DNA of 64,000 nt from Candidatus Pacebacteria bacterium RIFOXYA1_FULL_38_18 (GTDB lineage Bacteria; Patescibacteriota; Microgenomatia; UBA1400; PJMF01): assembly GCA_001787405.1 (NCBI GenBank), contig MFWV01000011.1:48857-112856 (forward strand), read 5' to 3'. A program made the position numbers and the translations under genes. The notes under the pieces were generated by a model. It searched no databases and was not told the DNA's origin. It saw only the letters and a program-made list of their open reading frames with translations. This document shows positions 1 to 58,079 of this stretch, in pieces. Numbering within the stretch: the first letter of the stretch is position 1; the number at the start of each line of letters is the position of its first letter.

Positions 1-201
1 AATCAGTCAGTCAATCAGATGGCTCAGGCTAATCAACCGACTCAACCAATTAATCAATCAGCTAATCAATCAGCCGATCAGCCAATTTCTCAAACTTCAG
101 CTCAATCAGCTAATATTGATAAAAAAGAAAAGGACGAACAATCACCTTCTTACTCTGGTCACTACGACATAAACGACTACTCACCGCCAACTTCCCCTTG
201 A
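1..201 (+). CDS. 3' end of a gene running off the window start; Q/S/N/P-rich low-complexity C-terminus
   Basis: Frame 1 is open from nt 1 to the TGA at 199-201. ORF-track entry 19..201 is its internal Met. The DNA is made of AATCAG/TCAGTC-type short repeats. Confidence 0.3.
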   Translation, partial: NQSVNQMAQANQPTQPINQSANQSADQPISQTSAQSANIDKKEKDEQSPSYSGHYDINDYSPPTSP

Positions 202-318
202 CAGTTTGTGGGAAACTATGTGTATAACTATGAACGATCAATGGTAGCTACTAACTACCATGTAGATTACATTTATTATCCTTAGTTTTTTAATACAGCC
301 GCCCAAGAAAAAAATAGT

Positions 319-1809
319 ATGTTTACTACCACTCTCGAAGAGAGCGAAATTATTAAAATCTGGTCTGCTACTCAAAAAGAATTAGCGGATCAATTAACTC
401 CAGCAGTTTTTAATACCTGGATTGTTTCCAATCCTTTGACAAAAATTGAGGTTGACCAACAAAATAACGCCTTAGCCACTATTGTTTGTCCTACTGCTTT
501 CCATGCCACCAATCTTAAAAAAAATCTTTATACCCAAATCAAGCAATCACTGGAAAAACAACTCAAAAAAAACACCGAACTATCTTTTATAGTTGGTTCT
601 CCAGTAAATAAACAAACAGATGATGAACAAAAAAATTCTACAAGAAAAGCTACTATTGGTAATAATTTTTTAAAGATACCCCATCAAAAATCTCCCTCAC
701 CTACCGTAGATGAACTATTCTCGGCTCACACCCTACAAGCTACTATTCAAGACAGAATGAAGGCTGCGGCGCGTAGAGTAGGCCTACGCCCCGATTACAC
801 CTTCAAAACCTTTGCCGTCTCCACTAGTAACGAACTAGCCCACGCCGCAGCCACCGCAGTCTCCAATAATCCAGGTACTACCTATAATCCCCTTTTTCTT
901 TATGGCGGGGTAGGGGTTGGAAAAACTCATCTAATGCATGCCATTGGCTACAACGTGCTTCAACAAAATCCGGAAACGAATATTATTTATAGAACTGGAG
1001 AAGAATTCACAAATGAAATCGTAGCAGCCATTCAAACCAAGAAAGCCTTTGACTTTAAAAGAAAATATCGCAATGCTCAAATATTAATGATCGATGATAT
1101 CCAATTCATTGCCGGAAAAATGACTGTTCAGGAAGAATTTTTTCACACCTTCAATGCTCTCATCAAACAATCCTTCCAAATCATTCTTACTTCCGATCGC
1201 CCCCCTCATGAAATTAATCTCATGGAAGATAGATTACGCTCTCGTTTTGAAGCTGGTTTGATGATTGATATCCAACAACCTTCTTTTGAACTGAGAACTG
1301 CCATTTTACTAATTAAAGCTCAAGCCAATAATTTAGATCTCCCCATGGATTTAGCTCAACATATCGCTTCCAAAGTTGATAGTGCTAGACGCATTGAGGG
1401 TATTGTCACTCAACTTCGATCAGAAATAGAATTAAAAAATAAAGTCATTTCTCTTGAGTTGATTCAGGAAATTACTAAAAGCGAAAAAATTAATCATCAA
1501 AATATTTTACGAGTTAATCCTCAAGACGTTATTAAAACCGTAGCCAATCATTACCGTATCAAACAAAGTGCTGTCAAAGGCAAAAGACGTACAAAAGAGG
1601 TAGTAACCGCTCGTCATACTGCCATGTTTTTCTTGAGGAAAGAACTTAATATGCCTTTAGAGGAAATTGGGAAGTGGTTCTCGGGTAGAGATCATACTAG
1701 TGTTTTGCATGCTATTAAAAAAATAGAGAAAGAAACTATTGAAGAAAACTTGGTTCAGCAAGATATTTCTGCAATAAGAATGTCGCTTAATGCTCTTTCA
1801 AAATCATAG
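319..1809 (+). CDS. dnaA: chromosomal replication initiator DnaA
   Basis: 496 aa with AAA+ Walker A GGVGVGKTHL and Walker B ILMIDDIQF. The C-terminal DnaA-box-binding domain (VTARHTAMFFLRKEL...GRDHTSV) is present. dnaN follows. Confidence 0.95.
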   Translation: MFTTTLEESEIIKIWSATQKELADQLTPAVFNTWIVSNPLTKIEVDQQNNALATIVCPTAFHATNLKKNLYTQIKQSLEKQLKKNTELSFIVGSPVNKQTDDEQKNSTRKATIGNNFLKIPHQKSPSPTVDELFSAHTLQATIQDRMKAAARRVGLRPDYTFKTFAVSTSNELAHAAATAVSNNPGTTYNPLFLYGGVGVGKTHLMHAIGYNVLQQNPETNIIYRTGEEFTNEIVAAIQTKKAFDFKRKYRNAQILMIDDIQFIAGKMTVQEEFFHTFNALIKQSFQIILTSDRPPHEINLMEDRLRSRFEAGLMIDIQQPSFELRTAILLIKAQANNLDLPMDLAQHIASKVDSARRIEGIVTQLRSEIELKNKVISLELIQEITKSEKINHQNILRVNPQDVIKTVANHYRIKQSAVKGKRRTKEVVTARHTAMFFLRKELNMPLEEIGKWFSGRDHTSVLHAIKKIEKETIEENLVQQDISAIRMSLNALSKS

Positions 1810-2087
1810 TTTTCCCCAAATGTGGAAAACTTTGTAGAAAACTCTGTGGATTATGTTTGGAAAACTGTGGATAATTTTGGGCAATTGTGTAAAGCCCTTG
1901 CATTTTTCCCCGCTTTTCCCTCACAATACACATAGTTTTTCAGGTGGTAAATCAAGAGAATCCACAATGCTTTTTATGTTTTTACTTGATAAAAAGCGCG
2001 GTTTTTCCCACTTATCCACCGTCTCTATTACTACAACAAATATAATTAAGTAATAAGAAGATAGGAATGAAAAAAATAAAATAAATC
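1810..2087. promoter_or_regulatory. oriC: candidate oriC: DnaA-box cluster plus AT-rich unwinding region between dnaA and dnaN
   Basis: TGTGGAAAA at 1821-1829 (rc TTTTCCACA). TGTGGATTA at 1846-1854 (rc TAATCCACA). TGTGGATAA at 1866-1874 (rc TTATCCACA, a perfect box). GAATCCACA at 1958-1966. TTATCCACC at 2012-2020. An AT-rich tract follows at 2040-2087. Confidence 0.6.
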
Positions 2088-3194
2088 ATGAAAATTACAG
2101 TTTTACAAGAAAACCTAAAAAATGCTTTAGGTAGTTTGCAAAAAGTTATTCCCAACCGACCGCAATTACCAATTCTTTCATCTGTTTATCTAAAAGCAGA
2201 AAAAGATTCATTGGTTCTGGCTGCCACAGATCTTTATTTGGGAATCAAAAATACTATCCCAGCCAAAGTGACTAAGGGAGATACTCTGGTAGTACCAGGA
2301 GATATTCTTAAGAATTTGATATTTTCTTTTTCAGCTGGAGAAATAGAAATAGAAAAAAAAGATAATTCTCTTATTTTAAAATATGGTAATAGTATCTCCT
2401 CAATCCCCTATCAATCAGCAGAGGATTATCCATTATTTCCAGAGATATCAGGCGAGAGTTATTCGCTTTCTACTAAGCTATTGGAAAAAATAGAAAAATA
2501 TATTTCTTTTGCTGCTGCTATCGATCAAACCAGACCTATTTTAGCTTCATTATTATTTTCATTTAAAAAACAGGGATTAGAGATAGTAGGTACAGACGGT
2601 TTTAGATTGGCTACTCTAAATACGACTGAAAGTATTAAAGATTTTGAGGAAGATCTTCTCATTCCAGTTAAGGCTTTAAGTGAAGTATTTCGTATGGTTT
2701 CCCAAACAGAAGAAAAACAGGTGGAGTTTAAAATTGCCAGAGAATTAAAACAAGTTTTGTTTTCCATTAATGGTGCTCAAATATATGTTCGTTTGATTGA
2801 AGGCGAATATCCACCTTATAAAAAAATTATTCCACCTGATTTTGAACACAAATTTGCTTTGGATTGGGATGAATTAAATACACAAGTCAAGAGAGCCTTT
2901 ATTTTTTCCAGAGATATTTCCAACATTATTCGCTTTGAGATTAGTAAAGGTAGATTGGAGATAAAAGCTAGTTCACCCGCCCATGGTGAATATCAGGGTG
3001 AGATTAGCATCTCTCATCAGGGAAATCCATTGGAAATAGCCTTTAATGCTGTTTATTTATTGGATTTTTTGGCTACCCAACGAGCGAGTGAATTAATTTT
3101 TATGATGAATGAAAGTCTAAAACCAGCAGCGTTCAAAATTCAGGAGGAAAAAGATTATTTATATATCGTAATGCCTTTTCGCACTACAGACTAA
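2088..3194 (+). CDS. dnaN: DNA polymerase III beta sliding clamp
   Basis: 368 aa, immediately after dnaA and oriC. Typical N-terminus MKITVLQENLKNAL and a three-domain length. Confidence 0.9.
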   Translation: MKITVLQENLKNALGSLQKVIPNRPQLPILSSVYLKAEKDSLVLAATDLYLGIKNTIPAKVTKGDTLVVPGDILKNLIFSFSAGEIEIEKKDNSLILKYGNSISSIPYQSAEDYPLFPEISGESYSLSTKLLEKIEKYISFAAAIDQTRPILASLLFSFKKQGLEIVGTDGFRLATLNTTESIKDFEEDLLIPVKALSEVFRMVSQTEEKQVEFKIARELKQVLFSINGAQIYVRLIEGEYPPYKKIIPPDFEHKFALDWDELNTQVKRAFIFSRDISNIIRFEISKGRLEIKASSPAHGEYQGEISISHQGNPLEIAFNAVYLLDFLATQRASELIFMMNESLKPAAFKIQEEKDYLYIVMPFRTTD

Positions 3195-38649: not shown

Positions 38650-38723
38650 TGCGTGCGCTAGGACTCGAACCTAGAACCACCAAGGTATAAGCTTGGTGCT
38701 CTGACCAATTGAGCTACGCACGC
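38650..38723 (-). tRNA. tRNA-Ile, anticodon UAU (reads AUA)
   Basis: Hand-folded cloverleaf. Acceptor GCGTGCG/CGCACGC. D-stem GCTC/GAGC. Anticodon stem CCAAG/CTTGG with loop CTTATAC. T-stem CTAGG/CCTAG with loop TTCGAGT. No encoded CCA. Confidence 0.75.
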
Positions 38724-39527: not shown

Positions 39528-40544
39528 TTATTCACAAGTACTTGGTGTATAAGGTTCCCAATCACAGATAGTAGTGTTTGATGAGTTTGTATAACAAACA
39601 GCACATTGCACTGCATAACTTCCAGCTAGTTCAATGTCGTAACTTATTCCCCAGCTATTTGATATAAGTTGCAAAGGCGAATCGTGGTGATTACTGCCAC
39701 ATGGTTCCCATATTTTGAATGAATAGAAGTATTCATCATTATCTATGGGAGTAGTAGCCGAACAAACAAAATTAACAGTAGTTTCACCGGGTATAAAGCC
39801 AGCATCGTCTTCACCATTCAACGCAATATTTGTTCCACTAGTAGGATCTAACATTGTTATACTATGACATTGTGGACCGACGGGTGATGTAGGTGTGGGA
39901 GTAGATGTAGGTGTGGGAGTTGGTGTAACGGAAGGAGTTGGTGTTGGGGTTGGCGTGTTGTCGCAGGTAGAATCATATTCACAGGTACTATAACGAATTT
40001 TCTGCACTTGATAAGTGCCATTGGCCCCAGTGCAAAAATTACCATCTTTCATACAATCGAAAATCCAAATCTGGCACCTATCTGTTCCTACACATCTTGT
40101 GTCTACACAATGATCTGCATATTCGCTACAACCAGAAGGACAACTACTCACAATATCATCCTCAAATTGTGGTCTATGATAGCAAGCATTATTGTTTACG
40201 CTACCACCTGAAGGATAACTAGTTGGAGTGGGAGTGGGTTCTTCTCCTGCTTTAATAGGAGTGGGAGTGGGTTCTTCTCCTGCTTTAATAGGAGTGGGAG
40301 TCGGTTCTTCTCCTGCTTTGGTAGGAGTTGGAGTGGGAGTGGGTTCTTCTCCTGCTTTATAAGCCTGCTGGCGAACGTCCTGACTTTGTTTGGTTAAAAA
40401 TAAACCTACGGCCGCTCCTATAAGGAGCACTAATAAAACTATACCACCCATCCAGAGTGACAATGTTTTTTTTTGGGGACTAGAAAATTTACTAAAGTCT
40501 TTATTTGGTTGTGGACTGATAAAACTAGAATTATTTTCTGACAC
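39528..40544 (-). CDS. cell-surface protein: N-terminal signal-anchor, KAGEEPTPTPI tandem repeats, large Cys-rich domain
   Basis: 338 aa. TM GGIVLLVLLIGAAVGLFL, then QDVRQQAYKAGEEP shared with 40681..41589. About 20 Cys in the C-terminal half. Confidence 0.6.
   Translation of the reverse strand: MSENNSSFISPQPNKDFSKFSSPQKKTLSLWMGGIVLLVLLIGAAVGLFLTKQSQDVRQQAYKAGEEPTPTPTPTKAGEEPTPTPIKAGEEPTPTPIKAGEEPTPTPTSYPSGGSVNNNACYHRPQFEDDIVSSCPSGCSEYADHCVDTRCVGTDRCQIWIFDCMKDGNFCTGANGTYQVQKIRYSTCEYDSTCDNTPTPTPTPSVTPTPTPTSTPTPTSPVGPQCHSITMLDPTSGTNIALNGEDDAGFIPGETTVNFVCSATTPIDNDEYFYSFKIWEPCGSNHHDSPLQLISNSWGISYDIELAGSYAVQCAVCYTNSSNTTICDWEPYTPSTCE
40225..40360. repeat. 33-nt in-frame tandem repeat (about 4 copies) encoding KAGEEPTPTPI
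   Basis: GGAGTGGGAGTGGGTTCTTCTCCTGCTTTAATA recurs head-to-tail with one or two substitutions. Confidence 0.7.
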
Positions 40545-40680: not shown

Positions 40681-41589
40681 TTAAATGAAGAGCAGTAACA
40701 AAGCTCCAATTCCCAACATGCCCAAGCCAATTTGCAAGTATTTTAGCCAATCTTCTGGTCCGGTTTCAGGCAAAGTGCTGGGAAGAGTGGGCTGATCATC
40801 CTGATAGCCAGTGGTACCAGTGGTGGTACCAGTAGTCGTAGTTTCAGTATAGGCGAGAGTATCGGTATTTTCATCAGTCTCATCAGTTCTAGTATAGGCA
40901 AGAGTATCGGTATTTTCATCAGTGTCATCAGTGGTGCTAGTTGGAGTGGGAGGAGTTGGGGTAACAGTCGTTGTAGTAGTGGTGCTAGTTGGAGTGGGAG
41001 GAGTTGGGGTAACAGTCGTTGTAGTAGTGGTGCTAGTTGGAGTGGGAGGAGTTGGGGTGATAGTAGTTCCGCTAGTTGGAGTGGGAGTTGAGATGACAGT
41101 AGTTCCACTAGTGGGAGTGGGAATCGGTTCCTCTCCCGCTTTGGTAGGGTCTTCTCCTGCTTTAATAGGAGTGGGAGTCGGTTCCTCTCCTGCTTTGGTA
41201 GGGTCTTCTCCTGCTTTGGTAGGGTCTTCTCCTGCTTTAATAGGAGTGGGAGTCGGTTCCTCTCCCGCTTTGGTAGGGTCTTCTCCTGCTTTATAAGCCT
41301 GCTGGCGAACGTCCTGACTGATTTGAGTAAGATATAAACCAGCTCCACCACCTATGATGATAATCAATAATCCTATCAAGGCAATGATAGTGTTTTTTGA
41401 CAATTTACCCTTTTTCTTTGGTGGTTGAGTTGAAGAGGGGGTAGCAGTTTCTGATTTATTTGGAACTTTTTCCTCGTTCTTTGTTTGTGCGCTAGTTGGC
41501 TCGCTTATATTTTCCTTTGGAAGATCAGTCGGCAACTCTGGAGGCAAAGAATCTGTAGGCTGGGGTGTAGAACCAATAACGTTGATCAT
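40681..41589 (-). CDS. LPXTG-type cell-surface protein with KAGE(D/E)PT repeats and poly-Thr/Pro stalk
   Basis: N-terminal signal-anchor. KAGEDPT / KAGEEPTPTPI repeats. TTTTTTVTPTPPTPTS triplicated. C-terminus LPETGPEDWLKYLQIGLGMLGIGALLLLFI. Confidence 0.65.
   Translation of the reverse strand: MINVIGSTPQPTDSLPPELPTDLPKENISEPTSAQTKNEEKVPNKSETATPSSTQPPKKKGKLSKNTIIALIGLLIIIIGGGAGLYLTQISQDVRQQAYKAGEDPTKAGEEPTPTPIKAGEDPTKAGEDPTKAGEEPTPTPIKAGEDPTKAGEEPIPTPTSGTTVISTPTPTSGTTITPTPPTPTSTTTTTTVTPTPPTPTSTTTTTTVTPTPPTPTSTTDDTDENTDTLAYTRTDETDENTDTLAYTETTTTGTTTGTTGYQDDQPTLPSTLPETGPEDWLKYLQIGLGMLGIGALLLLFI
41105..41300. repeat. in-frame tandem repeats (21-nt and 33-nt units) encoding KAGEDPT / KAGEEPTPTPI, plus a thrice-repeated roughly 57-nt Thr/Pro unit at 40930-41100
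   Basis: GGTAGGGTCTTCTCCTGCTTT and GGAGTGGGAGTCGGTTCCTCTCC(T/C)GCTTTGGTA units. GGTGCTAGTTGGAGTGGGAGGAGTTGGGGTAACAGTCGTTGTAGTAGT occurs three times. Confidence 0.65.
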
Positions 41590-41644: not shown

Positions 41645-42757
41645 TTATGAACTAGAGAGGTGTAAAGAAGAAGTTATGGTTTGATATTTATTTCTGATAT
41701 TTATGAATATTGCTGCGAAAAAAAATGCCATAATCCGCGGTCTTATGAGGCGAACCAAAGAAGAATCATTTTTAATAATTAATTTGAGAATATTTAGTCT
41801 GATAAGAATTTTTTTAATTTTTGGTTCATATTTTTTAAGATGCCAAAACTTCAAAGGAGGAAACTCAGCGAACCACTCGATTGGCAATAAATGAGCCAAT
41901 ATGAGAATTTTCCAAGATGTATTTTTACTAATAAAACTTGGAGTTGAGTATCTAAAGAAACAATTGCTCAAAATTATCATCAACCAGGCCTCATTTTGAA
42001 ACTGATATTGTTTTGCTAATTGTAAAAAATTAGACCATTGACTTGGTTTTTTATAGGTTTGAGTTAATTTTCCGATTTCATAAAGCGTGCCCAGACCCGT
42101 TGCTAAATCATTGAATAAAAAACGAATGCACAAAGACAGTAATTGATAGTTTTTATTTTGAATGTGGTGATTGTGTTTTGTGTTGTTCAATAGTGCTGTG
42201 GAAAATTTCCGCACAATTAGGATCTCTTGCGCATTGAGAGTGCCAAAATGTGGATGTGCAATCATGCTATGAATATCAAGATTTAAATAACGAGCCTTAG
42301 AATAAGTAATTTCTTTGGGCGGATAAATGGTTTTTTTATAACCCTGATTGGTTAACCATTGATCAATAATCATCATGCCCTGCTTGTTGGTAAGCAAATC
42401 AAGATCATTAGTAAGAAATAATTGCTGATTTAGTTTGTTTTTAAAATCCTTAAAAAAAATACCTTTTATTTTTGTTTTCTCCAAAAAAGAAATTAGACGT
42501 TGTTTTTCTTTTTCATATAACAAGCTGGAAAAAATGCTATTTTTTTGATGTTTGATTAGTTTGTTTTTAAAAGATTTATTCAAATGTTTTTGACAATTTT
42601 GACAGTTTGTAAAGTGATCTAAGGCATGGAAAACTTTATTAAACATTGCTTTTTCATAGAGTTTGCTAGTGCTTTTTTTAACTAAATTGATTGGAGGACA
42701 AACAGAGGAATTGTTTTGCAATAAAAAAACCAAGATTTCTATATCGGCATTTAACAT
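41645..42757 (-). CDS. uncharacterised nucleotidyltransferase (pol-beta superfamily, NTP_transf_5-like)
   Basis: 370 aa. hhxDhDhh metal-binding motif TNDLDLLTN. Size and composition fit the PF14907-type family often found in peptide-modification clusters. No HMM was run. Confidence 0.45.
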   Translation of the reverse strand: MLNADIEILVFLLQNNSSVCPPINLVKKSTSKLYEKAMFNKVFHALDHFTNCQNCQKHLNKSFKNKLIKHQKNSIFSSLLYEKEKQRLISFLEKTKIKGIFFKDFKNKLNQQLFLTNDLDLLTNKQGMMIIDQWLTNQGYKKTIYPPKEITYSKARYLNLDIHSMIAHPHFGTLNAQEILIVRKFSTALLNNTKHNHHIQNKNYQLLSLCIRFLFNDLATGLGTLYEIGKLTQTYKKPSQWSNFLQLAKQYQFQNEAWLMIILSNCFFRYSTPSFISKNTSWKILILAHLLPIEWFAEFPPLKFWHLKKYEPKIKKILIRLNILKLIIKNDSSLVRLIRPRIMAFFFAAIFINIRNKYQTITSSLHLSSS

Positions 42758-42760
42758 AGA

Positions 42761-43702
42761 GTGATTATAATCGTTGTTATGATATCTGTTTTGATTGCTA
42801 CTAAAGAACGGCCAGATTCATTACTTGTGTGTCTTCAATCAATTGTCTCCAATCAATTCACTCAGTACGAAGTGATTGTTATTGATCAGAGCAATGTTGT
42901 CAGTGCGCTAATCAAACAATATCTTAAAAAGCATCATCGCATACATTTTTATCATCTGCCAAATAGGGGTAGGGAGAGGGGCAAAAGTTATGCCCTACAA
43001 CAAGGATTGATGAAAGCAAAAGGAGAAATCATTGCTTTTACAGACGATGACTGCATAGTGGATAAAAAATGGTTAAAGATTCTTTGGCAAGGTTTTGCCC
43101 AAAACAAATGTGATGGTCTATTTGGTCAGGTTTTACCATATCAGCCAGCTCAACATGCTGATGAAACTTGCCCCTGTACAATGCGTTTTGCAAAAAAAGA
43201 ATTTGTTCGTCAACCGCGCTACCATGTTTCCATTGGTTACGGCAATAACATGGCTTTTAGAAAGCAAGCTCTTGATGAGATTGGTTCACCAAAAACCTGG
43301 CTCGGTCCCGGATCAATTGGTTCGAATGCGGAAGATGCGGAGCTTACCCTACGGGCATTATTTGCCAAAAAAATTATTTTGAGATATCCAAAATCTATTG
43401 TTTATCACAATCGTTGGTTGAATGCTCAAGAAATGAAAGAACAGCAACTCTCTTACACTCAAGGAGAAGCGGCTTGTTATGGCTATTTTTCCTTTCTTGG
43501 ATCAAATTTTTGCAAACAAATATTAATTAGAGGAATCAAAGCCAATCTTCAGAATTTAAAACGCAATCTATTGTCAGTTTTTAGTTTTAACAAAGGTAAG
43601 CGGACGCGAAACAACGTTTATTGGAATTTTCGATCATTACTAGCTAGTGCACGAGGATTGAGTGTAGGATTTTGGTTTTTTTTAACAGAGTCTTTAAAAT
43701 AG
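42761..43702 (+). CDS. soluble glycosyltransferase family 2
   Basis: VLIATKERPDSLLVCLQSI, VIDQSN and AFTDDDC are GT-A motifs. No TM. Confidence 0.7.
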   Translation: MIIIVVMISVLIATKERPDSLLVCLQSIVSNQFTQYEVIVIDQSNVVSALIKQYLKKHHRIHFYHLPNRGRERGKSYALQQGLMKAKGEIIAFTDDDCIVDKKWLKILWQGFAQNKCDGLFGQVLPYQPAQHADETCPCTMRFAKKEFVRQPRYHVSIGYGNNMAFRKQALDEIGSPKTWLGPGSIGSNAEDAELTLRALFAKKIILRYPKSIVYHNRWLNAQEMKEQQLSYTQGEAACYGYFSFLGSNFCKQILIRGIKANLQNLKRNLLSVFSFNKGKRTRNNVYWNFRSLLASARGLSVGFWFFLTESLK

Positions 43703-43703
43703 T

Positions 43704-44699
43704 TTGATTAAAATTATGTCAATATCAGCTTCAATTATTATTCCAACCAAAGAGAGATTTGAAACTCTCCAGCATTGTTTATTGGCTACAATTAAACAAT
43801 TATCCAAAGAGGACGAAGTAATGGTGGTAGAAAATGGTCAAGCTTATCAAAAAACTAAACACTTAATTAATATTTTAGCCAAAAATCACCAAATAAGTTA
43901 TGTTCATGAATCACGACTTGGACCAGCTTTTGCTCGCAATAAAGGAATTAGTTTGGCTCGCAATGAAATCTTGATTTTTTTGGATGATGATTGTGTGCCT
44001 GGTCCGGGCTGGTTGAAAGCAATTAAAAAGCGTCATGAAAATGAAAAAAAACACCAGCAAACAGTGGTTTTTCAGGGAAAAATTAATTATGTTTATAAAA
44101 AATCGAATGCATTTGTTGAGTTATTTCATTTAAGAAATCGGATGGATTGGCAAGTAATTCGGAAAACTCCGGGATGGAAAATGGGGAAATTCATAAATTT
44201 TTTAAATGCTGGAATTTTTTCTGTTCGAAGGTCGGTTTTAGTTAAAAATAAGATTAAATTTAATGAACTTTTTTTTCCTTTTGTTGGTGAAGAGAGAGAT
44301 CTGACAGCGCAATTACATTTGCATGGTATTTCCATTGTTTATGCATCGGAAATACAAGTAACACATTACAAAGATAGAGGAAGCGTAGTGAATTCATTAA
44401 AAAGATCTTTTCAGGCGGGATTGGCACAAGAAATACTGAACGTTTTATATAAAACCAATCAATCAACAAAATCTTTGTTTAAGAAATCTTTTCGAAAAGA
44501 AAAAAATGGAATAATCGCTGAATTGTTAAAACAATTTAATCAGCAGTCACTATTTACCATTACAGGTATGATCATTACTTATTTGCGATTGAGTATGTTG
44601 GTCCTGGGAAGAGTTTATGGCAAATTTTGGTGTCTGTTGCAAAAAAACAAGCTTTATGAACATAGAAAAAAGCTATTTTTATCAATCACTAAGAACTAA
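43704..44699 (+). CDS. soluble glycosyltransferase family 2
   Basis: SIIIPTKERFETLQHCL and IFLDDDCVPGPGWL match the GT-A fold. No TM. One nt after the previous GT2 stop. Confidence 0.7.
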   Translation: MIKIMSISASIIIPTKERFETLQHCLLATIKQLSKEDEVMVVENGQAYQKTKHLINILAKNHQISYVHESRLGPAFARNKGISLARNEILIFLDDDCVPGPGWLKAIKKRHENEKKHQQTVVFQGKINYVYKKSNAFVELFHLRNRMDWQVIRKTPGWKMGKFINFLNAGIFSVRRSVLVKNKIKFNELFFPFVGEERDLTAQLHLHGISIVYASEIQVTHYKDRGSVVNSLKRSFQAGLAQEILNVLYKTNQSTKSLFKKSFRKEKNGIIAELLKQFNQQSLFTITGMIITYLRLSMLVLGRVYGKFWCLLQKNKLYEHRKKLFLSITKN

Positions 44700-45168
44700 T
44701 AAGCTTGCGATATAGATGTTTTAAAAAAGGATATTTATAAAGATTTTTTATTTTTAATAAATTTGGAAAATGGTGATTCAGTCGTGAATACCAAGTCAGA
44801 ATAAAAACAAAAAACCGCGAGCGATTATTTTCCAAAAAGATAGTATGCGAAGGATATATGATTTTTATAGCTTTTCCCATGAGTTTTTTAATATCAACCT
44901 GGTTATCATAATCTAATTTATTATCGCCCTTGGTAATAACATATTTTTTTTTAATAGCCATTAAGCGATGAAGAATTATTTGATTGTTTTTTTTAAAAGC
45001 TACAATATCGCCAACCGTATATTCTTGAGAATAATTAAGTTTTAAAACAACTTTTGCACCATGTTTAATTAAGGGTTCCATGCTATAACCCTTGCTAGTG
45101 GTTTGTATAATAAGCGAATGTTTATTAGTAATGAATTGAGTAATTAATGAAACATTTTTCATTGTCAT
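44689..45168 (-). CDS. S26-family signal-peptidase-like serine protease (Ser/His SipW/ER-type), no obvious TM
   Basis: GYSMEP (nucleophile Ser). ILHRL (His replaces the Lys of the KR box). KGDNKLDYDNQ (GDNxxxSxDSR-like). Start ambiguous; the ORF track gives 45234. Confidence 0.5.
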   Translation of the reverse strand: MTMKNVSLITQFITNKHSLIIQTTSKGYSMEPLIKHGAKVVLKLNYSQEYTVGDIVAFKKNNQIILHRLMAIKKKYVITKGDNKLDYDNQVDIKKLMGKAIKIIYPSHTIFLENNRSRFFVFILTWYSRLNHHFPNLLKIKNLYKYPFLKHLYRKLISS

Positions 45169-45185
45169 TGTGCATTGCTGATTTG

Positions 45186-46334
45186 ATGATTTTACTATAC
45201 ACGAACACAAATCAAGAGCATGATTTTTTGGCAAACAAATATGAGGACTATATAGTAACGGACAGTCAAGAAAAAACTGCAGTAGTATCTATTGCTTGCG
45301 GTTTTGAACATCGTGAGAAAGAAATTCCCAGCTTTGTTTTTAAAGAAAGTGTAATAGAGAGGTTTGGTTTATTTAGTGAGTTTTTCCGCAAAATATTAAT
45401 GGGAGTATTAAATACTCATGATGGAGCTTTATTGCATGCCAGTTCTATTGTTTATAAAAATCAGGGCTTTATTTTTATTGGTCATGAAGGAGCAGGCAAA
45501 ACAACTATTCGCAAATTACTAAATAACTACGTTTCTTTGGGCGATGATACAGCTATTATACGAATTAGAGGGGAAAAGACTTATCTATATGGTTCTCCAC
45601 TTTATCAACGAACTAAGCGTTCTTATCCGAATAAACGAGTTTTGATCTGTGGTATTTTTTCTTTAAAACAAGCAAAATATGCTCTAATTAATGATCTTGA
45701 TCTCAATCAGCAAGTGAAAGCGCTGTCGTCAAATGTTTTTTTATCTGGCTTAAAAGAATTTAACAATGAAAATAGAAAATTAAGTTTGACATTATTTACT
45801 TTGGGACAGCAACAACTTGTTCATAATTTATCTTTTGCCAAAACATCCCCAGTATCAAAAGTACTAAAAATATTTGCTCAAAAACCCTGGCAAAAAAAAT
45901 CAATCAAGAACCTATTGGTTCAAGCCAGCACTGTCTTTGTTCAAGAACTCCAAGATCATGTTGTTTGGTCGAAGGGTGTTGCCGATCGCGACTTTTTAAC
46001 TCAATGTTTGATAATTAATGAACATAGTTGGATTTTTGAATTCGGTTCACAGCGAATTTTGAAAGTAATAGCAGATAAAATTATTGGAAATCAAGAAGAG
46101 GCTTATCATCATTCTCTTGTGTTTAAAAAAATTAAACAATTCAAAGAAATCAAGGTTTTGCCTACGATAGTTGTTGTTCGAAAAGAAAATAATTTTGTAA
46201 TTATTGATGGCAATCATCGGGCATTGGCTTGGTATTTGCATAATAAAAATAATTTAACTGGAGAAATTTTGGTGTTAGTAGGAGATTTAAAAAATAATTT
46301 TAAAGAAAATAGTAAAATTTTTGCTTATTTATAA
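45186..46334 (+). CDS. HPr-kinase-like P-loop kinase fused to a C-terminal ParB/Srx-like domain
   Basis: GFIFIGHEGAGKTTIRKLL...LGDD fits the HprK C-domain pattern GxxGxGKS/T...hhDD. C-terminal VIIDGNHRALAWYL is ParB-like. Start ambiguous; the ORF track gives 45147. Confidence 0.5.
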   Translation: MILLYTNTNQEHDFLANKYEDYIVTDSQEKTAVVSIACGFEHREKEIPSFVFKESVIERFGLFSEFFRKILMGVLNTHDGALLHASSIVYKNQGFIFIGHEGAGKTTIRKLLNNYVSLGDDTAIIRIRGEKTYLYGSPLYQRTKRSYPNKRVLICGIFSLKQAKYALINDLDLNQQVKALSSNVFLSGLKEFNNENRKLSLTLFTLGQQQLVHNLSFAKTSPVSKVLKIFAQKPWQKKSIKNLLVQASTVFVQELQDHVVWSKGVADRDFLTQCLIINEHSWIFEFGSQRILKVIADKIIGNQEEAYHHSLVFKKIKQFKEIKVLPTIVVVRKENNFVIIDGNHRALAWYLHNKNNLTGEILVLVGDLKNNFKENSKIFAYL

Positions 46335-46369
46335 TTTTTGATTTTTTATAAAACTAATTAAGGTTGAAC

Positions 46370-46915
46370 AATTATTTTCAAAAACTACCGAACAACGTCG
46401 ATTGTTGGGAGTTTGGGCACATCCAGATGACGAATCACTCAATATAGAAGAAATTTTGGCTCTAGCAAACAAAGCTAAAATAAATACGCAAATAATTTGT
46501 CTTATGGAGAAATGGGCTTATCTCAAAATAGTGCCTTAGGGACTCGAGGGCGAGATGGGAAATCTGGCAAGAAAGCGATCGGTCGTGGAAGCTTTATTTT
46601 AGCGTTCTGGAACAGGACATAAAACGTCTTTATAAACATTCCAGAAAACTAACGATTTGGAAAAATATGCTAAAAGCAGATTTTCAAATAAGTATTACCA
46701 AAACAACTGATCAAAAAATAACGGCCTGTTTAGCTCACGTCAGCCAGTTGTCAGTTCTCAACAAACCAATCCCATTAAAAATAATTTTTAAAATGTTTGA
46801 TAATGAGTATTTACATCTAGTAACTGCACAAAACAAATATAATTTTCAATTTGTGAATTTTTTCACTCAAAGGTATAATTATCGTGTCAAAAACAAAACC
46901 GAAGGCTTTTCATAA
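46370..46915 (+). pseudogene. decayed LmbE/PIG-L-family deacetylase gene (no start codon, frameshift)
   Basis: Hand translation of 46378.. gives EQRRLLGVWAHPDDESLNIEEILALANKAKINTQIICLMEKW, with the PIG-L AHPDDE motif, ending in a stop. The reading frame of ORF 46667..46915 continues it after a frame change. Confidence 0.4.
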
Positions 46916-46931
46916 TAAAAAGGAATATTTT

Positions 46932-47216
46932 ATGGCTAAAAAATTTGACGATAATACTATGATAAAAAGAATGCAGGGCATTGTTTATAAAGAAGTTGAA
47001 GGGGTGTTTTATATTTTGAACTATCAAACAGTAACATTGCACACACTCAATGAAACAGCTAGCTTTGTCTGGAAAGAATTGGCCAAACCCAAAACTATTA
47101 AACAATTAACTGAAACGATCGTTGATAATTTTTCAACAACGAAAACTCAAGCAAAACAAGATCTTGAAAAATTCATTATCAAGTATAAAAAACTTGGCTT
47201 TCTTGAACTGATATAG
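46932..47216 (+). CDS. PqqD-family protein (RiPP recognition element-type peptide chaperone)
   Basis: 94 aa from MAKKFDDN with RBS AAGGAA 8 nt upstream. LNETASFVWKEL, LTETIVDNF and AKQDLEKFIIKYKKLGFLEL match the PqqD/RRE consensus. Confidence 0.65.
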   Translation: MAKKFDDNTMIKRMQGIVYKEVEGVFYILNYQTVTLHTLNETASFVWKELAKPKTIKQLTETIVDNFSTTKTQAKQDLEKFIIKYKKLGFLELI

Positions 47217-47242: not shown

Positions 47243-47341
47243 TTACTGGTATGATTCCAGAGTAAAAACATCTATTTCAATTTTTTCAACTTTTTCCGCT
47301 GGAGCCTTGTAGGCTTTTTTGGTTTTTTGGTTTTTGTTCAT
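47243..47341 (-). CDS. candidate 32-aa peptide (possible modified-peptide precursor)
   Basis: AGGAGA is 4 nt upstream of the ATG on the minus strand. Product MNKNQKTKKAYKAPAEKVEKIEIDVFTLESYQ. Convergent on pqqD-like; 50 nt downstream of the previous minus-strand gene. Confidence 0.4.
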   Translation of the reverse strand: MNKNQKTKKAYKAPAEKVEKIEIDVFTLESYQ

Positions 47342-47393: not shown

Positions 47394-48317
47394 TTAAGAA
47401 TTAATGTCAACTTTGTATTGAAAAATATTTTTTTCATTTAATTGGTTATTAATCTTTTTTTTGTTCGAGAAAATCCCAATAAAATTTCCTTTGCATTTAT
47501 AAATTTGAGTATAACGGGCGATTTTAATATATTTTTCAAAAAATGAACGATGATCGATTGATGATTTTTTCAAACCAAAATTGACAATGACGTACTCACT
47601 AGATGCGAGAATTTTTTTAATAAAAATACTATTTTTTATCTTTGGAACAATAAGATGATCGACAAAGAGATCAACAATTATAAGACCATATTGCTTTTTA
47701 TTTTGCGAAGTATATGCAAAAGCATCAGCTTGAATTAATTTAATTTTAGAAATTTTTGATCCAAGAAAACTTTTTCGCAAGGGTAAAAAATATTTTTTAG
47801 CTACTTTAATCATAATGGGAGAAATTTCTACTACATCGCTGGAGATTTCAAGACTAGTCAATAATTCCAATGGAATTACTGCTCCGCCCCCACCTAGCAC
47901 TAATGCAGAGCGTTTTTGAGGTTGATTTTTTTTAATTAATTTACGAATGAAGTCTAAATACAACCAAGAATTATGATTTTTTAAATAAATAGAAGAATAA
48001 GATACATTAGATTTCGGCTGGCAAATTGTTCTCAATGATTTGGATGGATGTAAAGGAAAAAAACGATCTCTAACAATGAAATGTTCCTTATTTTTTTCGA
48101 TTATTTCTTTTTGAAAAACAGTTATACCTTTAGTTAACCCTAAAAAAACTAAAATAAGAATAATATTAATAAAAACCAAAGTAATAACGACGAAAATTTC
48201 TAAGGGAAGTTTAAATACTAAATTAAAAATTAACCAAATGATGAATGAAGATAAAAAAAATAAGATTTTTTTATAACCAATAGAGGTTTTGGTAATCCAA
48301 AAAGGTTTTATTTTCAT
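47394..48317 (-). CDS. membrane-anchored spermidine-synthase-like (PABS fold) protein
   Basis: Two N-terminal TMs. VLGGGGGAVIPLEL glycine-rich motif. GLIIVDLF. Confidence 0.55.
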   Translation of the reverse strand: MKIKPFWITKTSIGYKKILFFLSSFIIWLIFNLVFKLPLEIFVVITLVFINIILILVFLGLTKGITVFQKEIIEKNKEHFIVRDRFFPLHPSKSLRTICQPKSNVSYSSIYLKNHNSWLYLDFIRKLIKKNQPQKRSALVLGGGGAVIPLELLTSLEISSDVVEISPIMIKVAKKYFLPLRKSFLGSKISKIKLIQADAFAYTSQNKKQYGLIIVDLFVDHLIVPKIKNSIFIKKILASSEYVIVNFGLKKSSIDHRSFFEKYIKIARYTQIYKCKGNFIGIFSNKKKINNQLNEKNIFQYKVDINS

Positions 48318-48362: not shown

Positions 48363-49112
48363 TCAATGACGAACCAGAACATTTTTTTTATAAGCTTCTA
48401 TAGCCCTTATTCCATCATTTTGAATAAGTTTTCCTTTTTCCAGCCAAATGATTCTCGTGCAATGATCTTTTAGATAATCCAACCAATGACTGACGCTAAT
48501 AATTGTTTTACCTTGTTTGTAAAATTGATTGATTTTTTGCAAAGATTTTTTTCTAAACTCTTCATCTCCCACAGCTATTGCCTCGTCCAAAAGTAAAATA
48601 TCTGGATCAGAGTGAACAGCAATAGAAAATCCTAGTCTCAAGGACATTCCAGAAGAATAGGTGTAAAGGGGAGAGTCAATAAATTTTTTTAGGCCGCTAA
48701 ACTGAATAATTTTTTTATATTTTTTTTCTATTTCTGGTCTCGTCATGCCAACAATAAGTCCATTGAGAAAAATGTTTTCTTCTCCAGTGAGTTCAGGATG
48801 AAAACCCGCTTCAAGTTCTATTAATGAAACAATTCTTCCTTTAGTGATAATTTTTCCAGTTGTGGGAGCGGTTATGCCAGCGATCATTTTGAGAACAGTT
48901 GTTTTTCCAGATCCATTGGGCCCAATGATTCCCACTTTTTCTCCACTATATATTTCGAAAGAAACATCTTTTAGAGCCTCAAATTTTTCTCTAGATTCCA
49001 GTCCCAAAAATGATCCTACCAGAGTTGGTTTTTGGTGTTTAAGAACGTATTTTTTACAGACTTTTTCAAAATAGATAACTGTTTGTTTTTTGCGTTTCAT
49101 TTTTACATCCAA
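48363..49112 (-). CDS. ABC transporter ATP-binding protein, polysaccharide/teichoic-acid exporter type (Wzt/TagH-like)
   Basis: Walker A GPNGSGKTT. Signature YSSGMSLRLGFSIAV. Walker B ILLLDEAIAVGD. Confidence 0.85.
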   Translation of the reverse strand: MDVKMKRKKQTVIYFEKVCKKYVLKHQKPTLVGSFLGLESREKFEALKDVSFEIYSGEKVGIIGPNGSGKTTVLKMIAGITAPTTGKIITKGRIVSLIELEAGFHPELTGEENIFLNGLIVGMTRPEIEKKYKKIIQFSGLKKFIDSPLYTYSSGMSLRLGFSIAVHSDPDILLLDEAIAVGDEEFRKKSLQKINQFYKQGKTIISVSHWLDYLKDHCTRIIWLEKGKLIQNDGIRAIEAYKKNVLVRH

Positions 49113-49858
49113 TCATCAAAATATTTTTGTTCTTTTTTAAATACCAGAATTCCCAGAATGGTAATTATGATCGTAGAGAAAATTGGCAACCAAAGAGCGT
49201 CTGGAGAAAGAAGATAATCTTGAATACCAAAAGAAACTCTAAACAGCTGAATGATAGCAGTGAGTGGATTTAAAAATAAGATTAGTTTAATTTTCTCTGG
49301 AATTAACTGAATTGAGTAAATGATTGGAGTGGCATAAAACCAAATAGGAATTATGGCTCTGACAAGAAAACTCATGTCTCTAAACTTCACATTAAGACTA
49401 GCAAAGAATAAAGAAATGCCGATTGTAAAAATAAAAATCCAAAAAATTGCCAGAATGAGTGTGAAAAAATTGATCATGGTTAAAGAAAATGGAAAAACCA
49501 AAATAAAGCCCACTATAAGATGAAAGAGATTTGATAGAACCAAAGAAAGAATCAGTGATTCTCTAGGAAAAACTGCTTTTTTGATCAAATGTCTTTCATC
49601 GACAAACAAAGAAACAGCTTTGGAAAAACTGATTGAGAAAAAATTCCAGGGCAAAAGTCCTAGAAAAAGATATAAAAAGTAATTTTCAGTTCTAATTCCT
49701 GGGAAAAATTGCAATACAAACCCAATAACCAACATTTGCAATAAAGGGTTGATTATCAGCCACAAAAACCCCAGTACCACATGTTTATATCTACCCTTGA
49801 GCTCTCTGGTAGTTAGCGCAAGCGTAAAATCCAGCCATCTTTTCCATTTTTTTATCAC
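49103..49858 (-). CDS. ABC-2 type transport permease (Wzm/TagG-like)
   Basis: 251 aa, 6 TM. Overlaps the cognate ATPase gene. Confidence 0.75.
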   Translation of the reverse strand: MIKKWKRWLDFTLALTTRELKGRYKHVVLGFLWLIINPLLQMLVIGFVLQFFPGIRTENYFLYLFLGLLPWNFFSISFSKAVSLFVDERHLIKKAVFPRESLILSLVLSNLFHLIVGFILVFPFSLTMINFFTLILAIFWIFIFTIGISLFFASLNVKFRDMSFLVRAIIPIWFYATPIIYSIQLIPEKIKLILFLNPLTAIIQLFRVSFGIQDYLLSPDALWLPIFSTIIITILGILVFKKEQKYFDDWM

Positions 49859-55605: not shown

Positions 55606-56707
55606 TGACCAGTAAATCTATTACCAATAAACAATCTTCAGAATTGCCAGCATAACAATCATAACGATATTGATATTGAATTATGCCGATCAAAATAATG
55701 ATAGCCCAAAAAAGAATTGGTTTTTTGATTAATTTTTGTAGCAAGACTAGAAACAATAGGTAAAAAACAGGCAAAACTGGGAAAATATATCTGGGTAAAA
55801 AATAACCAAGTTTAGTTATCATGAGTAGGCTGGGCAGAGAAGTAATACCCAAAATTAAACCAGGGATAGATATCTTTTTGATTTGTTGGATAAGTTTTTT
55901 ACTAGTAAGCAACATAACAAAAATAGATTCAGAAATAATATATCTTCCCTGACGAACAGTGATATAAACAATGGCGTCCCACAAACTTTGCCAGGGTTGT
56001 TCATCAAAATATCTCTCAGGTGAATAGATCCACCAACCAGTTATTTGCAAATGAATGACCAACCAGAGGACTGTAGTTAATAAAAAGGGGAAGACATAGC
56101 GAATGATCCAGTTTAATTTATTGGTTATTTCTTTTTCCAAAAAAAGATAGGCAATTGCTGATGCACTCAAGAAAAGACTGTTATCAATTCTGGTTAAAAT
56201 AGCAATCAAGCCAATGATGGTAAAACGTAAATATTTTTTTTCTAGTAAGAAAATTACAGCTAGAAAGCGCAAAGCTGTGCCAATGATTTCAAAATAAACC
56301 AAATGTGTTTGTGCTAAAAAAAGAGGGTTAGTTAAAAATAGTAAAACCAAAGCCATGCCTACTTTTTTATTAACCAATTTGTTACCCAATAAGTACATAA
56401 CAATAAGGAAAAAAATTGAGAGCAATAACCCTAGTATATGAATGAGTAGCAAATGATTGCCTGGCATTTGCAAAATTAAAGCAATAGCCAGAGGTAATAA
56501 AAAGGTGTGAGGATAATCACTAAATCCCAGATAAGAAAATAAGTTGCTTGTTTCAGCAATTGATCCAGCTGCAGCTATCAAAAACCATTCGGTATCCCAG
56601 TAGAAAGGGAGCAAAAATCCTTGTTTTAGGATCCAAAAAAGAAGAAAAACAACAAAAATAAAAAATAAAACTAAATATTGATTTTTTTTGATTAAAATTT
56701 TAATCAT
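55595..56707 (-). CDS. hypothetical polytopic membrane protein
   Basis: 370 aa, 9-10 TM. Confidence 0.45.
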   Translation of the reverse strand: MIKILIKKNQYLVLFFIFVVFLLFWILKQGFLLPFYWDTEWFLIAAAGSIAETSNLFSYLGFSDYPHTFLLPLAIALILQMPGNHLLLIHILGLLLSIFFLIVMYLLGNKLVNKKVGMALVLLFLTNPLFLAQTHLVYFEIIGTALRFLAVIFLLEKKYLRFTIIGLIAILTRIDNSLFLSASAIAYLFLEKEITNKLNWIIRYVFPFLLTTVLWLVIHLQITGWWIYSPERYFDEQPWQSLWDAIVYITVRQGRYIISESIFVMLLTSKKLIQQIKKISIPGLILGITSLPSLLMITKLGYFLPRYIFPVLPVFYLLFLVLLQKLIKKPILFWAIIILIGIIQYQYRYDCYAGNSEDCLLVIDLLVNEK

Positions 56708-58079
56708 ATAAATTGCCTGGGTGAGTAATGTTTGTCTCGATCAATGGACTCGAAATTCTGTTTTTTGTCAATGTAAGTGAAAAATATCTGGCAAAAAACA
56801 AAGCTTGTAAAACACAAAACATTAAATATTTATGAGGTCTAAATATCAAGTAAGAAATAGTAGAGGCAGTGCTTCTAATCGATAATTTATATTGATTGGT
56901 CATTTTTACAACTAGCTGATTGAGTAAATTAAAAGTATGAATGTGCTGTTCTGAATCAACGTAAGTCGGTGAAAGAGTCAATGATTCAAGTCGCTTAAAC
57001 TGATTATTTAACTCTAGATCAATTTCATTTAATCGAATTTGCCCAAATAAAAGTTTTATCAGAAAAATAAAAAGAGAGAAAAAATTTCCTTGATGATTTA
57101 CTAATGATGGAATTAAATAAGATTTTGTTATTGGTTTACCTCTAGTTAAATTAAAATGAAGACCAATTTTAATTTGTTTTTTGAAATGAAGTAATTTTTG
57201 AGCTTCTGATTTAGAAATTAAGTTGGCCAATACGGAAACGCCGTCCAAGTTTTTGGCTTCGATTTGATTTAATATCGCTTGATCAACAAGCGGAGATAAA
57301 CCGTAGTCATCAGCGATTATTAATTTATTTTTTTGATATATATTTTTTCGGTCAAAAGTATTTATCAAATAAAAACTCGCTAATCGATAAAGATCAATCA
57401 AAAGAGCTCTCATTCTTTTCCAAGAAGTGTAGCGACTGGGTCTGAGTTCAGTAACTTTAATAGGAATTTCCTTAATAGTTTGCTGTTGCTGGTGGAGTTT
57501 TAATAATAACTCAGTATCTAAAATTTCATGTTTAGTGGCACAGTTTCTTAGAGTATTAATCAAGATTGGAGTAAGGCGAAAAGCCTTCAATCCATGAGTG
57601 TCTGTACCTGGATAAGCAAATAAAATTTTCAATAATTGATGAAATAATTTGGTTTGTGCGCGTCGCAATAAATTTCTTTGATCATAATTTTTAATTAGGG
57701 TTTTTGAACCAATTATTATTTTGTGTTTTTTAAGTAATTTCTGGGTTTGAGAAATAAAATCATGATCAAATAAATCGACATTGAGAATATAAACAAATTG
57801 ACCTAAAGAGCTTAAGATTCCATGTTTGAGTGCTTGTCCATAAGAAGCCTTGTTGACACGCAAGGCTCGTAAGCTCGAATATTTTTTAGTTAATTGTTTA
57901 ATAATTGACCAAGATTGATCACTACTACCATTTTCTACCAGTAGAACCTCGAATTTAGTAATGCGCTCTTTATTTAATAATTGATAAAAAAGTTTTATCT
58001 GTGAAGAAAGATGAAGAGCCTCATTGTGAACTGGGAAGATAAAACTGTGTTTTTTAGGGTGAATGATTTTTTTTGTCAT
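56700..58079 (-). CDS. fusion: GT2 polyprenol-phosphate-sugar-synthase-like N-domain plus YdjC/ChbG-like carbohydrate deacetylase C-domain
   Basis: N-domain FIFPVHNEALHL, LLVENGSSDQS. C-domain KLIIADDYGLSPLVDQAIL, IKIGLHFNLTRGKP (YdjC-family). Confidence 0.6.
   Translation of the reverse strand: MTKKIIHPKKHSFIFPVHNEALHLSSQIKLFYQLLNKERITKFEVLLVENGSSDQSWSIIKQLTKKYSSLRALRVNKASYGQALKHGILSSLGQFVYILNVDLFDHDFISQTQKLLKKHKIIIGSKTLIKNYDQRNLLRRAQTKLFHQLLKILFAYPGTDTHGLKAFRLTPILINTLRNCATKHEILDTELLLKLHQQQQTIKEIPIKVTELRPSRYTSWKRMRALLIDLYRLASFYLINTFDRKNIYQKNKLIIADDYGLSPLVDQAILNQIEAKNLDGVSVLANLISKSEAQKLLHFKKQIKIGLHFNLTRGKPITKSYLIPSLVNHQGNFFSLFIFLIKLLFGQIRLNEIDLELNNQFKRLESLTLSPTYVDSEQHIHTFNLLNQLVVKMTNQYKLSIRSTASTISYLIFRPHKYLMFCVLQALFFARYFSLTLTKNRISSPLIETNITHPGNLYD

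Follow-up and report, generated by a model that had tools for sequence, protein, structure and literature searches.

A predicted HprK-like kinase fused to a divergent ParB/sulfiredoxin-fold module in a putative peptide-modifying gene cluster of Patescibacteria

Linear polyphosphorylated peptides (LPPs) are a family of ribosomally made, post-translationally modified peptides (RiPPs) of Bacillota (Popov et al., Nat Commun 2026, PMC13381572), and their biosynthetic core comprises a signal peptidase I (SpI)-like peptidase (LppS), a discrete RiPP recognition element (RRE; LppB), an HprK-like kinase (LppK), a nucleoside triphosphate (NTP) transferase (LppN) and an exporter. LPP clusters are embedded in polysaccharide loci, and their precursors carry the motif YxxPxVLxHQxIxFETxxS. 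Ser3 of the core, which lies 18 residues past the leader tyrosine (Y+18), receives several phosphates from LppK, LppS cleaves after Thr-1, and LppN was inactive, for which the authors propose a partner that 'produces a rare substrate' (PMC13381572). The domain tables of that study include PqqD, NTP_transf_5 and TIGR02228, the families given for LppB, LppN (the 'putative NTP transferase') and LppS, respectively, and group TIGR04249, TIGR04352 and TIGR04355 as 'HprK kinase'; a ParB domain is not among the domains listed, and LPPs are described as restricted to Bacillota (PMC13381572). In paeninodin-type lasso clusters and in pseudomycoidin, an HprK-like kinase phosphorylates a precursor serine, and the phosphate so installed receives a sugar from a nucleotidyltransferase-like enzyme. 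Here, we analyzed a 64,000-nucleotide (64-kb) stretch of the genome of Candidatus Pacebacteria bacterium RIFOXYA1_FULL_38_18 (contig MFWV01000011.1, hereafter the window), centering on a gene at 45147..46334 (+) that encodes an HprK-like kinase module joined to a divergent module of ParB/sulfiredoxin (Srx) type.

The gene is one uninterrupted open reading frame (ORF) of 395 amino acids (aa) with zero internal stops, and both modules lie within it. The protein is identical in three independent groundwater metagenome assemblies, and therefore the fusion is no assembly artefact. The public gene call (P0001, 382 aa) and the original prediction both begin at the in-frame Met14 (45186). Residues 8-15 (LxIAxLxI), which precede Met14, are kept in homologues, and the full-length model places two strands, at low confidence, at residues 4-19, so that the true start is most likely 45147 rather than 45186. 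The worry voiced with the original prediction, that the true start might lie downstream of the P-loop, does not hold with this start.

The N-terminal residues 1 to ~250 (45147..45896) form a ScmC/HprK-related P-loop kinase module, an extent that follows from the kinase-only relatives, which are 239-268 aa long and lack the C-terminal domain. The HprK pattern noted originally can be read straight from the sequence: the Walker A motif GHEGAGKTT (residues 112-120, nt 45480-45506) satisfies GxxGxGK[ST] and is followed by LGDD (residues 131-134, nt 45537-45548), although the spacing between them is 10 residues and not the ~15 first given. His97, within LHASS (45435-45437), and Asp133-Asp134 (45543-45548) are presumably the equivalents of the catalytic His and Asp-Asp of HprK/P. 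His97, G112/G117/K118/T120 and D133/D134 are invariant in 24/24 aligned fused proteins, and a GSPFYQxT..YPN block is invariant or nearly so in the fused family.

Precomputed Pfam annotation assigns PF27840 (ScmC) to the window protein and all its homologues. Local Pfam/NCBIfam scans of the window protein returned weak P-loop matches only, the HprK_rel_B match (E = 0.0016, residues 93-122) scoring 17.6 bits against a cut-off of 200. When the 24 fused members were scanned with NCBIfam models, HprK_rel_A matched 20 (best E = 2e-6), ScmC TIGR04249 matched 18 (best E = 1e-10) and HprK_rel_B matched 15 (best E = 9e-7), all with scores below the curated cut-offs, and a few of the 24 matched phosphoenolpyruvate carboxykinase (PEPCK) or HPr kinase models. 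A full-length AlphaFold2 model built from a 4-sequence alignment had a predicted local distance difference test score (pLDDT) of 56, with residues 175-298 unmodelled and the N-terminal module mostly at ~56-87; Foldseek searches with this low-confidence model retrieved PEPCK (E = 1e-4) and HprK/P structures (E = 2.5e-3 to 0.1). Searches of the PDB with phmmer and with a full-length family profile gave generic P-loop matches only (ClpC, ABC proteins) and did not place the kinase. Taking the family annotation, the matches in 15-20 of the 24 members and the PEPCK and HprK/P fold matches together, the N-terminal module is a predicted LppK/ScmC-type HprK-like P-loop peptide kinase with its catalytic residues intact, in line with the HprK-like kinase first proposed.

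The second module spans residues ~262-395 (45930..46331); at ~130 aa, it is larger than the ~90 aa originally assigned to it. The motif DGNHR (46206-46220) lies within IVVVRKENNFVIIDGNHRALAWYLH (residues 341-365, nt 46167-46241). Neither the protein as a whole nor its C-terminus alone gave a significant Pfam/NCBIfam domain match. We aligned 54 domain sequences (alignment A3) as the basis of a domain model and profile; PF02195 (ParBc) matched 0/54 of them and no Pfam family was significant, and by sequence, membership of the domain in the ParBc family is not supported. The domain scan, which found no ParB/Srx relationship, would have led to a wrong rejection of the idea had it been taken alone. 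The AlphaFold2 model of the domain from A3 reached a pLDDT of 92.8 and a predicted TM-score (pTM) of 0.87, and Foldseek ranked ParB/Srx-type families first, albeit weakly (E = 0.04-1; TM-scores 0.36-0.44 for the leading matches). The best PDB sequence match of the A3 profile was SbnI, a ParB/Srx-fold serine kinase (E ~0.1), over a segment that runs from a strand through DGxHR into the next helix. In an hhalign comparison with human sulfiredoxin, DGNHR aligned on GGCHR, a register in which Asn356 falls at the position of the Srx catalytic cysteine. G355-N-H-R358 of the window protein is thus aligned to GCHR in Srx and to DGVHR in SbnI.

Could the resemblance be a chance or modelling artefact, with the C-terminus being an unrelated alpha/beta domain? 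The missing significant hidden Markov model (HMM) match, the Foldseek E-values (all >0.03) and the low TM-scores of the leading matches would suit such an explanation, but the profile and hhalign both put DGNHR on DGxHR/GCHR, and three ParB-type families (DndB, 0.053; ddrB-ParB, 0.032; GmrSD_N, 0.15) turn up among the Pfam matches that the 54 domain sequences give below threshold, making an artefact exceedingly improbable in our judgement. We consider the ParB/Srx fold assignment well supported, and the originally suggested resemblance to the DGxxR motif of that fold stands on the fold model, the SbnI profile match and the alignment on GCHR. For the two-module architecture and the C-terminal fold together, our confidence is high.

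We searched 1.84 billion cluster representatives with a 4-sequence profile of residues 255-395, which matched 66 clusters. About 24 of these (clusters at 50% identity) contain the same fusion, being 344-409 aa long with the match at residues ~250-400; three shorter ones look like pieces of fused-type proteins, P0026 and P0049 are short and standalone, and ~37 stand alone at 146-255 aa with an N-terminal extension of another kind. The fusion is therefore real: one ORF encodes it, it recurs in ~24 clusters, as the suggested search for the same architecture in other genomes brought out, and both modules have invariant residues. All five fusion loci with a named source organism come from candidate-phyla-radiation bacteria. 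The same fusion is present in genomes of Candidatus Beckwithbacteria, Shapirobacteria and Paceibacterota and in metagenomes, where it adjoins a Peptidase_S24/SpI gene, a PqqD gene and a family-2 glycosyltransferase (GT2) gene, often along with PIG-L and NTP_transf_5.

Split versions of the fusion exist as well. In loci L013 and L014, PIG-L, a kinase-only ScmC (260 aa), PqqD and GT2 precede a separately encoded domain copy of 150 aa, whose gene in L013 overlaps the end of GT2 by 4 nt (6001 vs 6004). In L015, a PIG-L-ScmC fusion (500 aa, 1244-2746 (+)) is accompanied by PqqD, GT2 and a standalone domain copy. A further gene fusion is found in the Paceibacterota locus L007, where the SpI-like peptidase is fused to NTP_transf_5 (490 aa, 177-1649 (-)). 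The domain HMM finds the domain in every fused or split pathway locus examined, and every locus having the domain also contains a GT2 gene and a PqqD RRE. Two loci of other types in which ScmC is kinase-only, L016 (with YcaO and nitroreductase genes) and L017, gave no HMM match. The pair of SpI-type peptidase and PqqD is also found in L001, L002, L006, L007, L008 and L013. Because fused and split versions recur (Rosetta-stone evidence), we regard the C-terminal domain as a genuine, functionally coupled component of the pathway.

The larger branch of the domain consists of the standalone proteins of 146-255 aa (P0032-P0072 and P0073-P0102; L009, L010, L011), many with a conserved EFL..EWY N-extension and a nearly invariant (D/E)GNHR, and with named sources that include Magnetococcales and a metagenome-assembled genome of Pseudomonadota. 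The neighbourhoods of the ~190-aa homologues with the EFL..EWY extension are heterogeneous and uninformative on function. As for L016 (3325-12976, on a Patescibacteria contig), its kinase-only ScmC occurs with PqqD, NTP_transf_5, sulfatase/phosphodiesterase, PAPS-reductase-like, spermine-synthase-like, YcaO and nitroreductase genes, and the locus appears to be a distinct RiPP-like cluster that has this core of kinase, RRE and transferase in common.

In the window, the candidate substrate of the kinase is a 32-aa peptide, MNKNQKTKKAYKAPAEKVEKIEIDVFTLESYQ, encoded at 47243..47341 (-). It belongs to a conserved family: seven loci have a small ORF (24-43 aa) next to PqqD or the peptidase, the other six being L002 (7460-7558 (-)), L001 (4242-4373 (-)), L006 (2899-3096 (-)), L008 (6960-7061 (-)), L013 (3024-3098 (-)) and L015 (1027-1137 (-)). 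It lies on the opposite strand and directly downstream of PqqD in 5/7 loci. The peptides share a Lys-rich N-terminus, an invariant K-x-x-Y-x-x-P, an (E/D)(K/R)VEKIEI segment and a variable tail of 2-9 residues with Ser/Thr/Tyr. A hydroxyl residue occurs at Y+16 to Y+19 in 7/7 peptides, and exactly 21 residues follow the Tyr in four of the seven. K-x-x-Y-x-x-P peptides span loci whose kinases share only ~30-50% identity. Judged by these sequence features, the conserved small ORF is likely a RiPP precursor. Two other ideas about the substrate were rejected: signal-peptidase A-x-A cleavage at APA-E in the peptide, as the alanines vary across loci, and two Thr/Pro-rich putative surface proteins of the window as precursors, as their AYKAGEEP is YxxG rather than YxxP.

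The genes around the fusion fit a peptide-modifying cluster in several respects. A 94-aa PqqD-family RRE lies at 46932..47216 (+) (PF05402, E = 2.2e-11, with weak lasso_PqqD NCBIfam matches), and a SipW/LppS-like archaeal-type signal peptidase I, the candidate leader peptidase, at 44689..45168 (-). This peptidase matches SipW, Peptidase_S24 and TIGR02228 (sigpep_I_arch; E = 3.6e-13), the last with 49.7 bits, just below the cut-off of 51.85; counted from its 159-aa start, an SM-P serine, an HR histidine and an aspartate stand at about 29/67/91. An LppN-type NTP_transf_5 nucleotidyltransferase-like protein is encoded at 41645..42757 (-) (PF14907, E = 4.4e-15), next to two GT2 genes at 42761-43702 (+) (PF00535, E = 2.8e-24) and 43704-44699 (+) (PF00535, E = 2.4e-21). 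On the other side lie genes for a membrane spermine-synthase-like protein (47394-48317 (-); Pfam Spermine_synth), an ABC ATPase (48363-49112 (-); ABC_tran) and an ABC-2 permease (49103-49858 (-); ABC2_membrane), the latter two annotated as in the L003/L004 gene calls (identical assemblies); these three genes recur in sister clusters. A degraded PIG-L/LmbE-type deacetylase pseudogene (46340..46915 (+)) retains an AHPDDE motif, followed by stops and frame changes, and is broken identically in L003 and L004, other assemblies of the same organism. The PIG-L gene is intact in L001, L002, L006 and L013 and absent from L007 and L008; being a pseudogene in the window and missing from these two loci, PIG-L appears dispensable for the pathway.

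The divergent peptidase (44689-45234 (-) as the longest ORF) and kinase (45147 (+)) genes overlap at their 5' ends by ~20 nt, compared with 13 nt in L006 and ~43 nt in L001 (longest ORFs); because of this overlap, there is no intergenic promoter region between them.

The wider region is a polysaccharide locus, dense in GT2 and family-4 (GT4) glycosyltransferases and with a Wzy_C ligase-like protein, an ABC-2 (Wzm/Wzt-like) exporter and a PMT_2 protein. Such a setting would also be expected if there were no peptide pathway at all, with the two-module protein acting on cell-envelope glycopolymer intermediates and the small ORF being fortuitous. However, a PqqD RRE is present in every domain-bearing locus, the K-x-x-Y-x-x-P ORF persists in seven loci despite the divergence of their kinases, and LPP clusters, for which peptide modification is demonstrated, likewise sit in polysaccharide loci. 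Therefore, we find a glycopolymer pathway very improbable.

Elsewhere in the region, two adjacent predicted membrane-anchored Thr/Pro-rich proteins (39528-40544 (-) and 40681-41589 (-)) carry tandem KAGE(E/D)PT(PTPI) repeats, with DNA periods of 33-75 nt and matches of up to 100%, and have in common, after a hydrophobic stretch, the segment QDVRQQAYKAGE; they could be surface or glycosylation-substrate proteins. A 459-aa protein (56700-58079 (-)) combines a GT2 glycosyltransferase domain with a YdjC-like domain (carbohydrate deacetylase family). The sole Rfam match in the 64-kb window is one tRNA gene (38650-38723 (-)).

From the architecture, the neighbourhood and the peptide family, we infer the following catalytic sequence. 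First, by analogy with LppK, the PqqD protein would bind the KxxYxxP leader of the 32-aa peptide (47243-47341 (-)). The kinase module would then phosphorylate a Ser/Thr/Tyr of the tail, 16-19 residues past the leader Tyr, much as LppK modifies the Ser at +18. In a third step, the ParB/Srx module may bind nucleotide at its DGNH(R)/His321 site and perform or gate the next phosphate-dependent reaction, which might be phosphate extension or hand-over of the phosphopeptide to NTP_transf_5 and GT2. Finally, the SipW-like peptidase would cut off the leader, again by analogy, and the ABC-2 transporter would export the product. We lean slightly towards this whole account, i.e., a two-module enzyme in a Patescibacteria LPP-type RiPP pathway whose ParB/Srx module has a nucleotide-dependent role.

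The role of the ParB/Srx module is the least certain part of this account. A nucleotide-dependent role is favoured because invariant polar residues occupy the canonical nucleotide site of the fold, because Srx, SerK and SbnI are ParB/Srx-fold ATP- or ADP-dependent phosphotransferases, and because LppN, inactive by itself, is proposed to need a further partner. E298, H321 and D354-G-N-H357 are invariant in 24/24 fused clusters, in which W274 and W295 are nearly so, and at least 50 of the 54 domain sequences retain G-N-H. We assign nucleotide-dependent catalysis or gating to the module tentatively, at less than even confidence. A more specific proposal is possible but rather doubtful: the module would be catalytically active, as a ParB/Srx phosphotransferase or an enzyme that handles nucleotides, and it and the kinase would act in tandem on one ribosomal peptide.

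Several observations weigh against such a role, and against the account as a whole. Although the window protein has the box II arginine, R358, only 11/24 fused clusters and 38/54 domain sequences overall keep it; such variability suggests that canonical phosphate binding may be dispensable. Equivalents of box I and box III were not found in the C-terminal domain. In Bacillota, LppK alone polyphosphorylates its substrate (PMC13381572), so that there is no obvious need for a second phosphotransfer module. The full-length model may serve as a hint only, as contacts between the modules are not readable from it, and a precursor peptide was not found in L007. The variable arginine and the self-sufficiency of LppK form the main counter-evidence.

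These two points lend weight to a different function, in which the module would be a non-catalytic scaffold or docking pseudo-enzyme that serves oligomerisation or tethers the kinase to GT2, PqqD or NTP_transf_5. The arginine is lost in 13/24 fused clusters and LppK works without such a module; moreover, PadC provides a precedent for a ParB-fold protein acting as a scaffold, and the 4-nt overlap of the standalone gene with GT2 in split clusters suggests a pairing with the glycosyltransferase. Such a role is harder to reconcile with the residues that are invariant in all 24 fused clusters and with G-N-H being so widely kept, given that polar residues at the canonical nucleotide site are more typical of an active or ligand site than of a pure interface. 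We therefore rate a scaffold or pseudo-enzyme as unlikely, though very much alive.

Alternatively, the module might be an independent small-molecule kinase of the SerK/SbnI type, which would not itself act on the peptide but would supply a phosphorylated building block (e.g., a sugar or amino-acid phosphate) for NTP_transf_5/GT2 to attach to it. This would agree with the rare-substrate partner that the LPP authors propose for LppN (PMC13381572), and with the domain being seen only in GT2-bearing loci while missing from the two kinase-only loci examined. However, the module lacks the second domain of SerK and SbnI (chains of 241 and 254 residues vs ~130), the likeness is confined to the fold (9-18% identity), its fusion to a peptide kinase points to a common substrate, and the variability of the arginine applies equally here. 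Such a kinase is thus quite improbable, and we retain, tentatively as before, nucleotide-dependent catalysis or gating in the peptide pathway.

Both folds are known, as is the type of pathway; the fusion, the ParB/Srx branch that had gone undetected and the occurrence of a pathway version in Patescibacteria are new. All public records, of fused protein and standalone domain alike, are unnamed or 'hypothetical', with PF27840 as the sole annotation. A PNAS 2025 survey of ParB-CTPase fusions, which searched with PF02195, mentions no HprK fusion (PMC12704722), and since PF02195 does not detect the domain, it would have escaped that survey. The novelty claimed in the original prediction thus holds as far as checked, and the LPP paper likewise lists no ParB domain (PMC13381572). 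A literature search on Patescibacteria, PqqD and RiPPs returned nothing relevant.

Our results imply that a branch of the ParB/sulfiredoxin fold has stayed hidden from current domain databases, and they tie this fold for the first time to ribosomal-peptide modification, if the pathway is as we propose. Candidate-phyla-radiation bacteria are usually thought to be poor in secondary metabolism, and LPP-type chemistry would gain a remodelled counterpart in these ultra-small organisms. The module is also a candidate for the partner that the LPP authors invoke for their inactive NTP transferase. Were the tandem enzyme active, RiPP biosynthesis would have its first ParB/Srx-fold enzyme, which might also be the 'missing partner' of LppN-type NTP_transf_5, in a phospho-glyco-peptide pathway confined, in the loci sampled, to candidate-phyla-radiation bacteria, and the LPP family would extend well beyond Bacillota. 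The system is tractable, offering a 32-aa substrate candidate, natural split versions and point-mutable motifs in the kinase (K118/D134) and in the second module (N356/H357/E298/H321).

Compared with known systems, the N-terminal module finds its best family matches in ScmC (SynChlorMet cassette protein; TIGR04249/PF27840) and in the HprK-related kinases A and B (TIGR04352, TIGR04355), although the scores of the window family are under the curated equivalog cut-offs and the kinase-only relatives lack the C-terminal domain. Searching the literature for ScmC/SynChlorMet returned unrelated acronyms only. The kinases of paeninodin-type lasso clusters are not described with a ParB/Srx domain, and we rejected a lasso-peptide cluster here as neither an Asn-synthase-like cyclase nor a B2 protease was found in the window or related loci.

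For the C-terminal module, the comparisons are with proteins of the same fold. Relative to sulfiredoxin (13-14% identity), Asn356 replaces the catalytic cysteine and the N-terminal side is longer by ~40 residues, among them the conserved W274 and SW-FEF elements. The free serine kinases SerK (archaea) and SbnI (Staphylococcus) are two-domain proteins with an N-terminal ParB/Srx domain and PDB chains of 241 and 254 residues, whereas the window domain has ~130 aa and no second domain; the profile match to SbnI has an E of only ~0.1, the catalytic Glu of SerK is E30, and SerK does not phosphorylate peptide serine. The ParB CTPase domain (PF02195) shares the fold, and its box II GxxR is present in the window protein, but the window domain is undetected by PF02195, has neither a helix-turn-helix nor a dimerisation domain, and varies at the box II arginine.

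The closest described system remains the LPP pathway, and the differences from it are considerable. The host is a member of Patescibacteria rather than of Bacillota, precursors are 24-43 aa long as opposed to 35-200, and what follows YxxP is of the EKVEKIEI type instead of the xVLxHQxIxFETxxS type. An ABC-2 permease with a separate ATPase stands in place of an MsbA-like exporter, GT2, PIG-L and spermine-synthase-like genes are additional and conserved here, and LPPs are not reported to have the ParB/Srx-fold module in either form, fused or standalone. On the other hand, a kinase of the TIGR04249/04352/04355 type, a PqqD RRE, a TIGR02228-type peptidase and NTP_transf_5 are all present in the window, and the cluster likewise lies in a polysaccharide locus. 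The Ser/His/Asp of the window peptidase stand at about 29/67/91, the residues mutated in LppS being S29/H68/D93 according to primer names in the supplement (PMC13381572), and the window family combines a YxxP leader with a hydroxyl residue at Y+16 to Y+19, against a phospho-Ser at Y+18 in LPPs. Because the kinase, RRE, peptidase and NTP_transf_5 models coincide with the LPP domain tables and are accompanied by YxxP peptides, we conclude that the window cluster is probably a distant LPP-like pathway in Patescibacteria.

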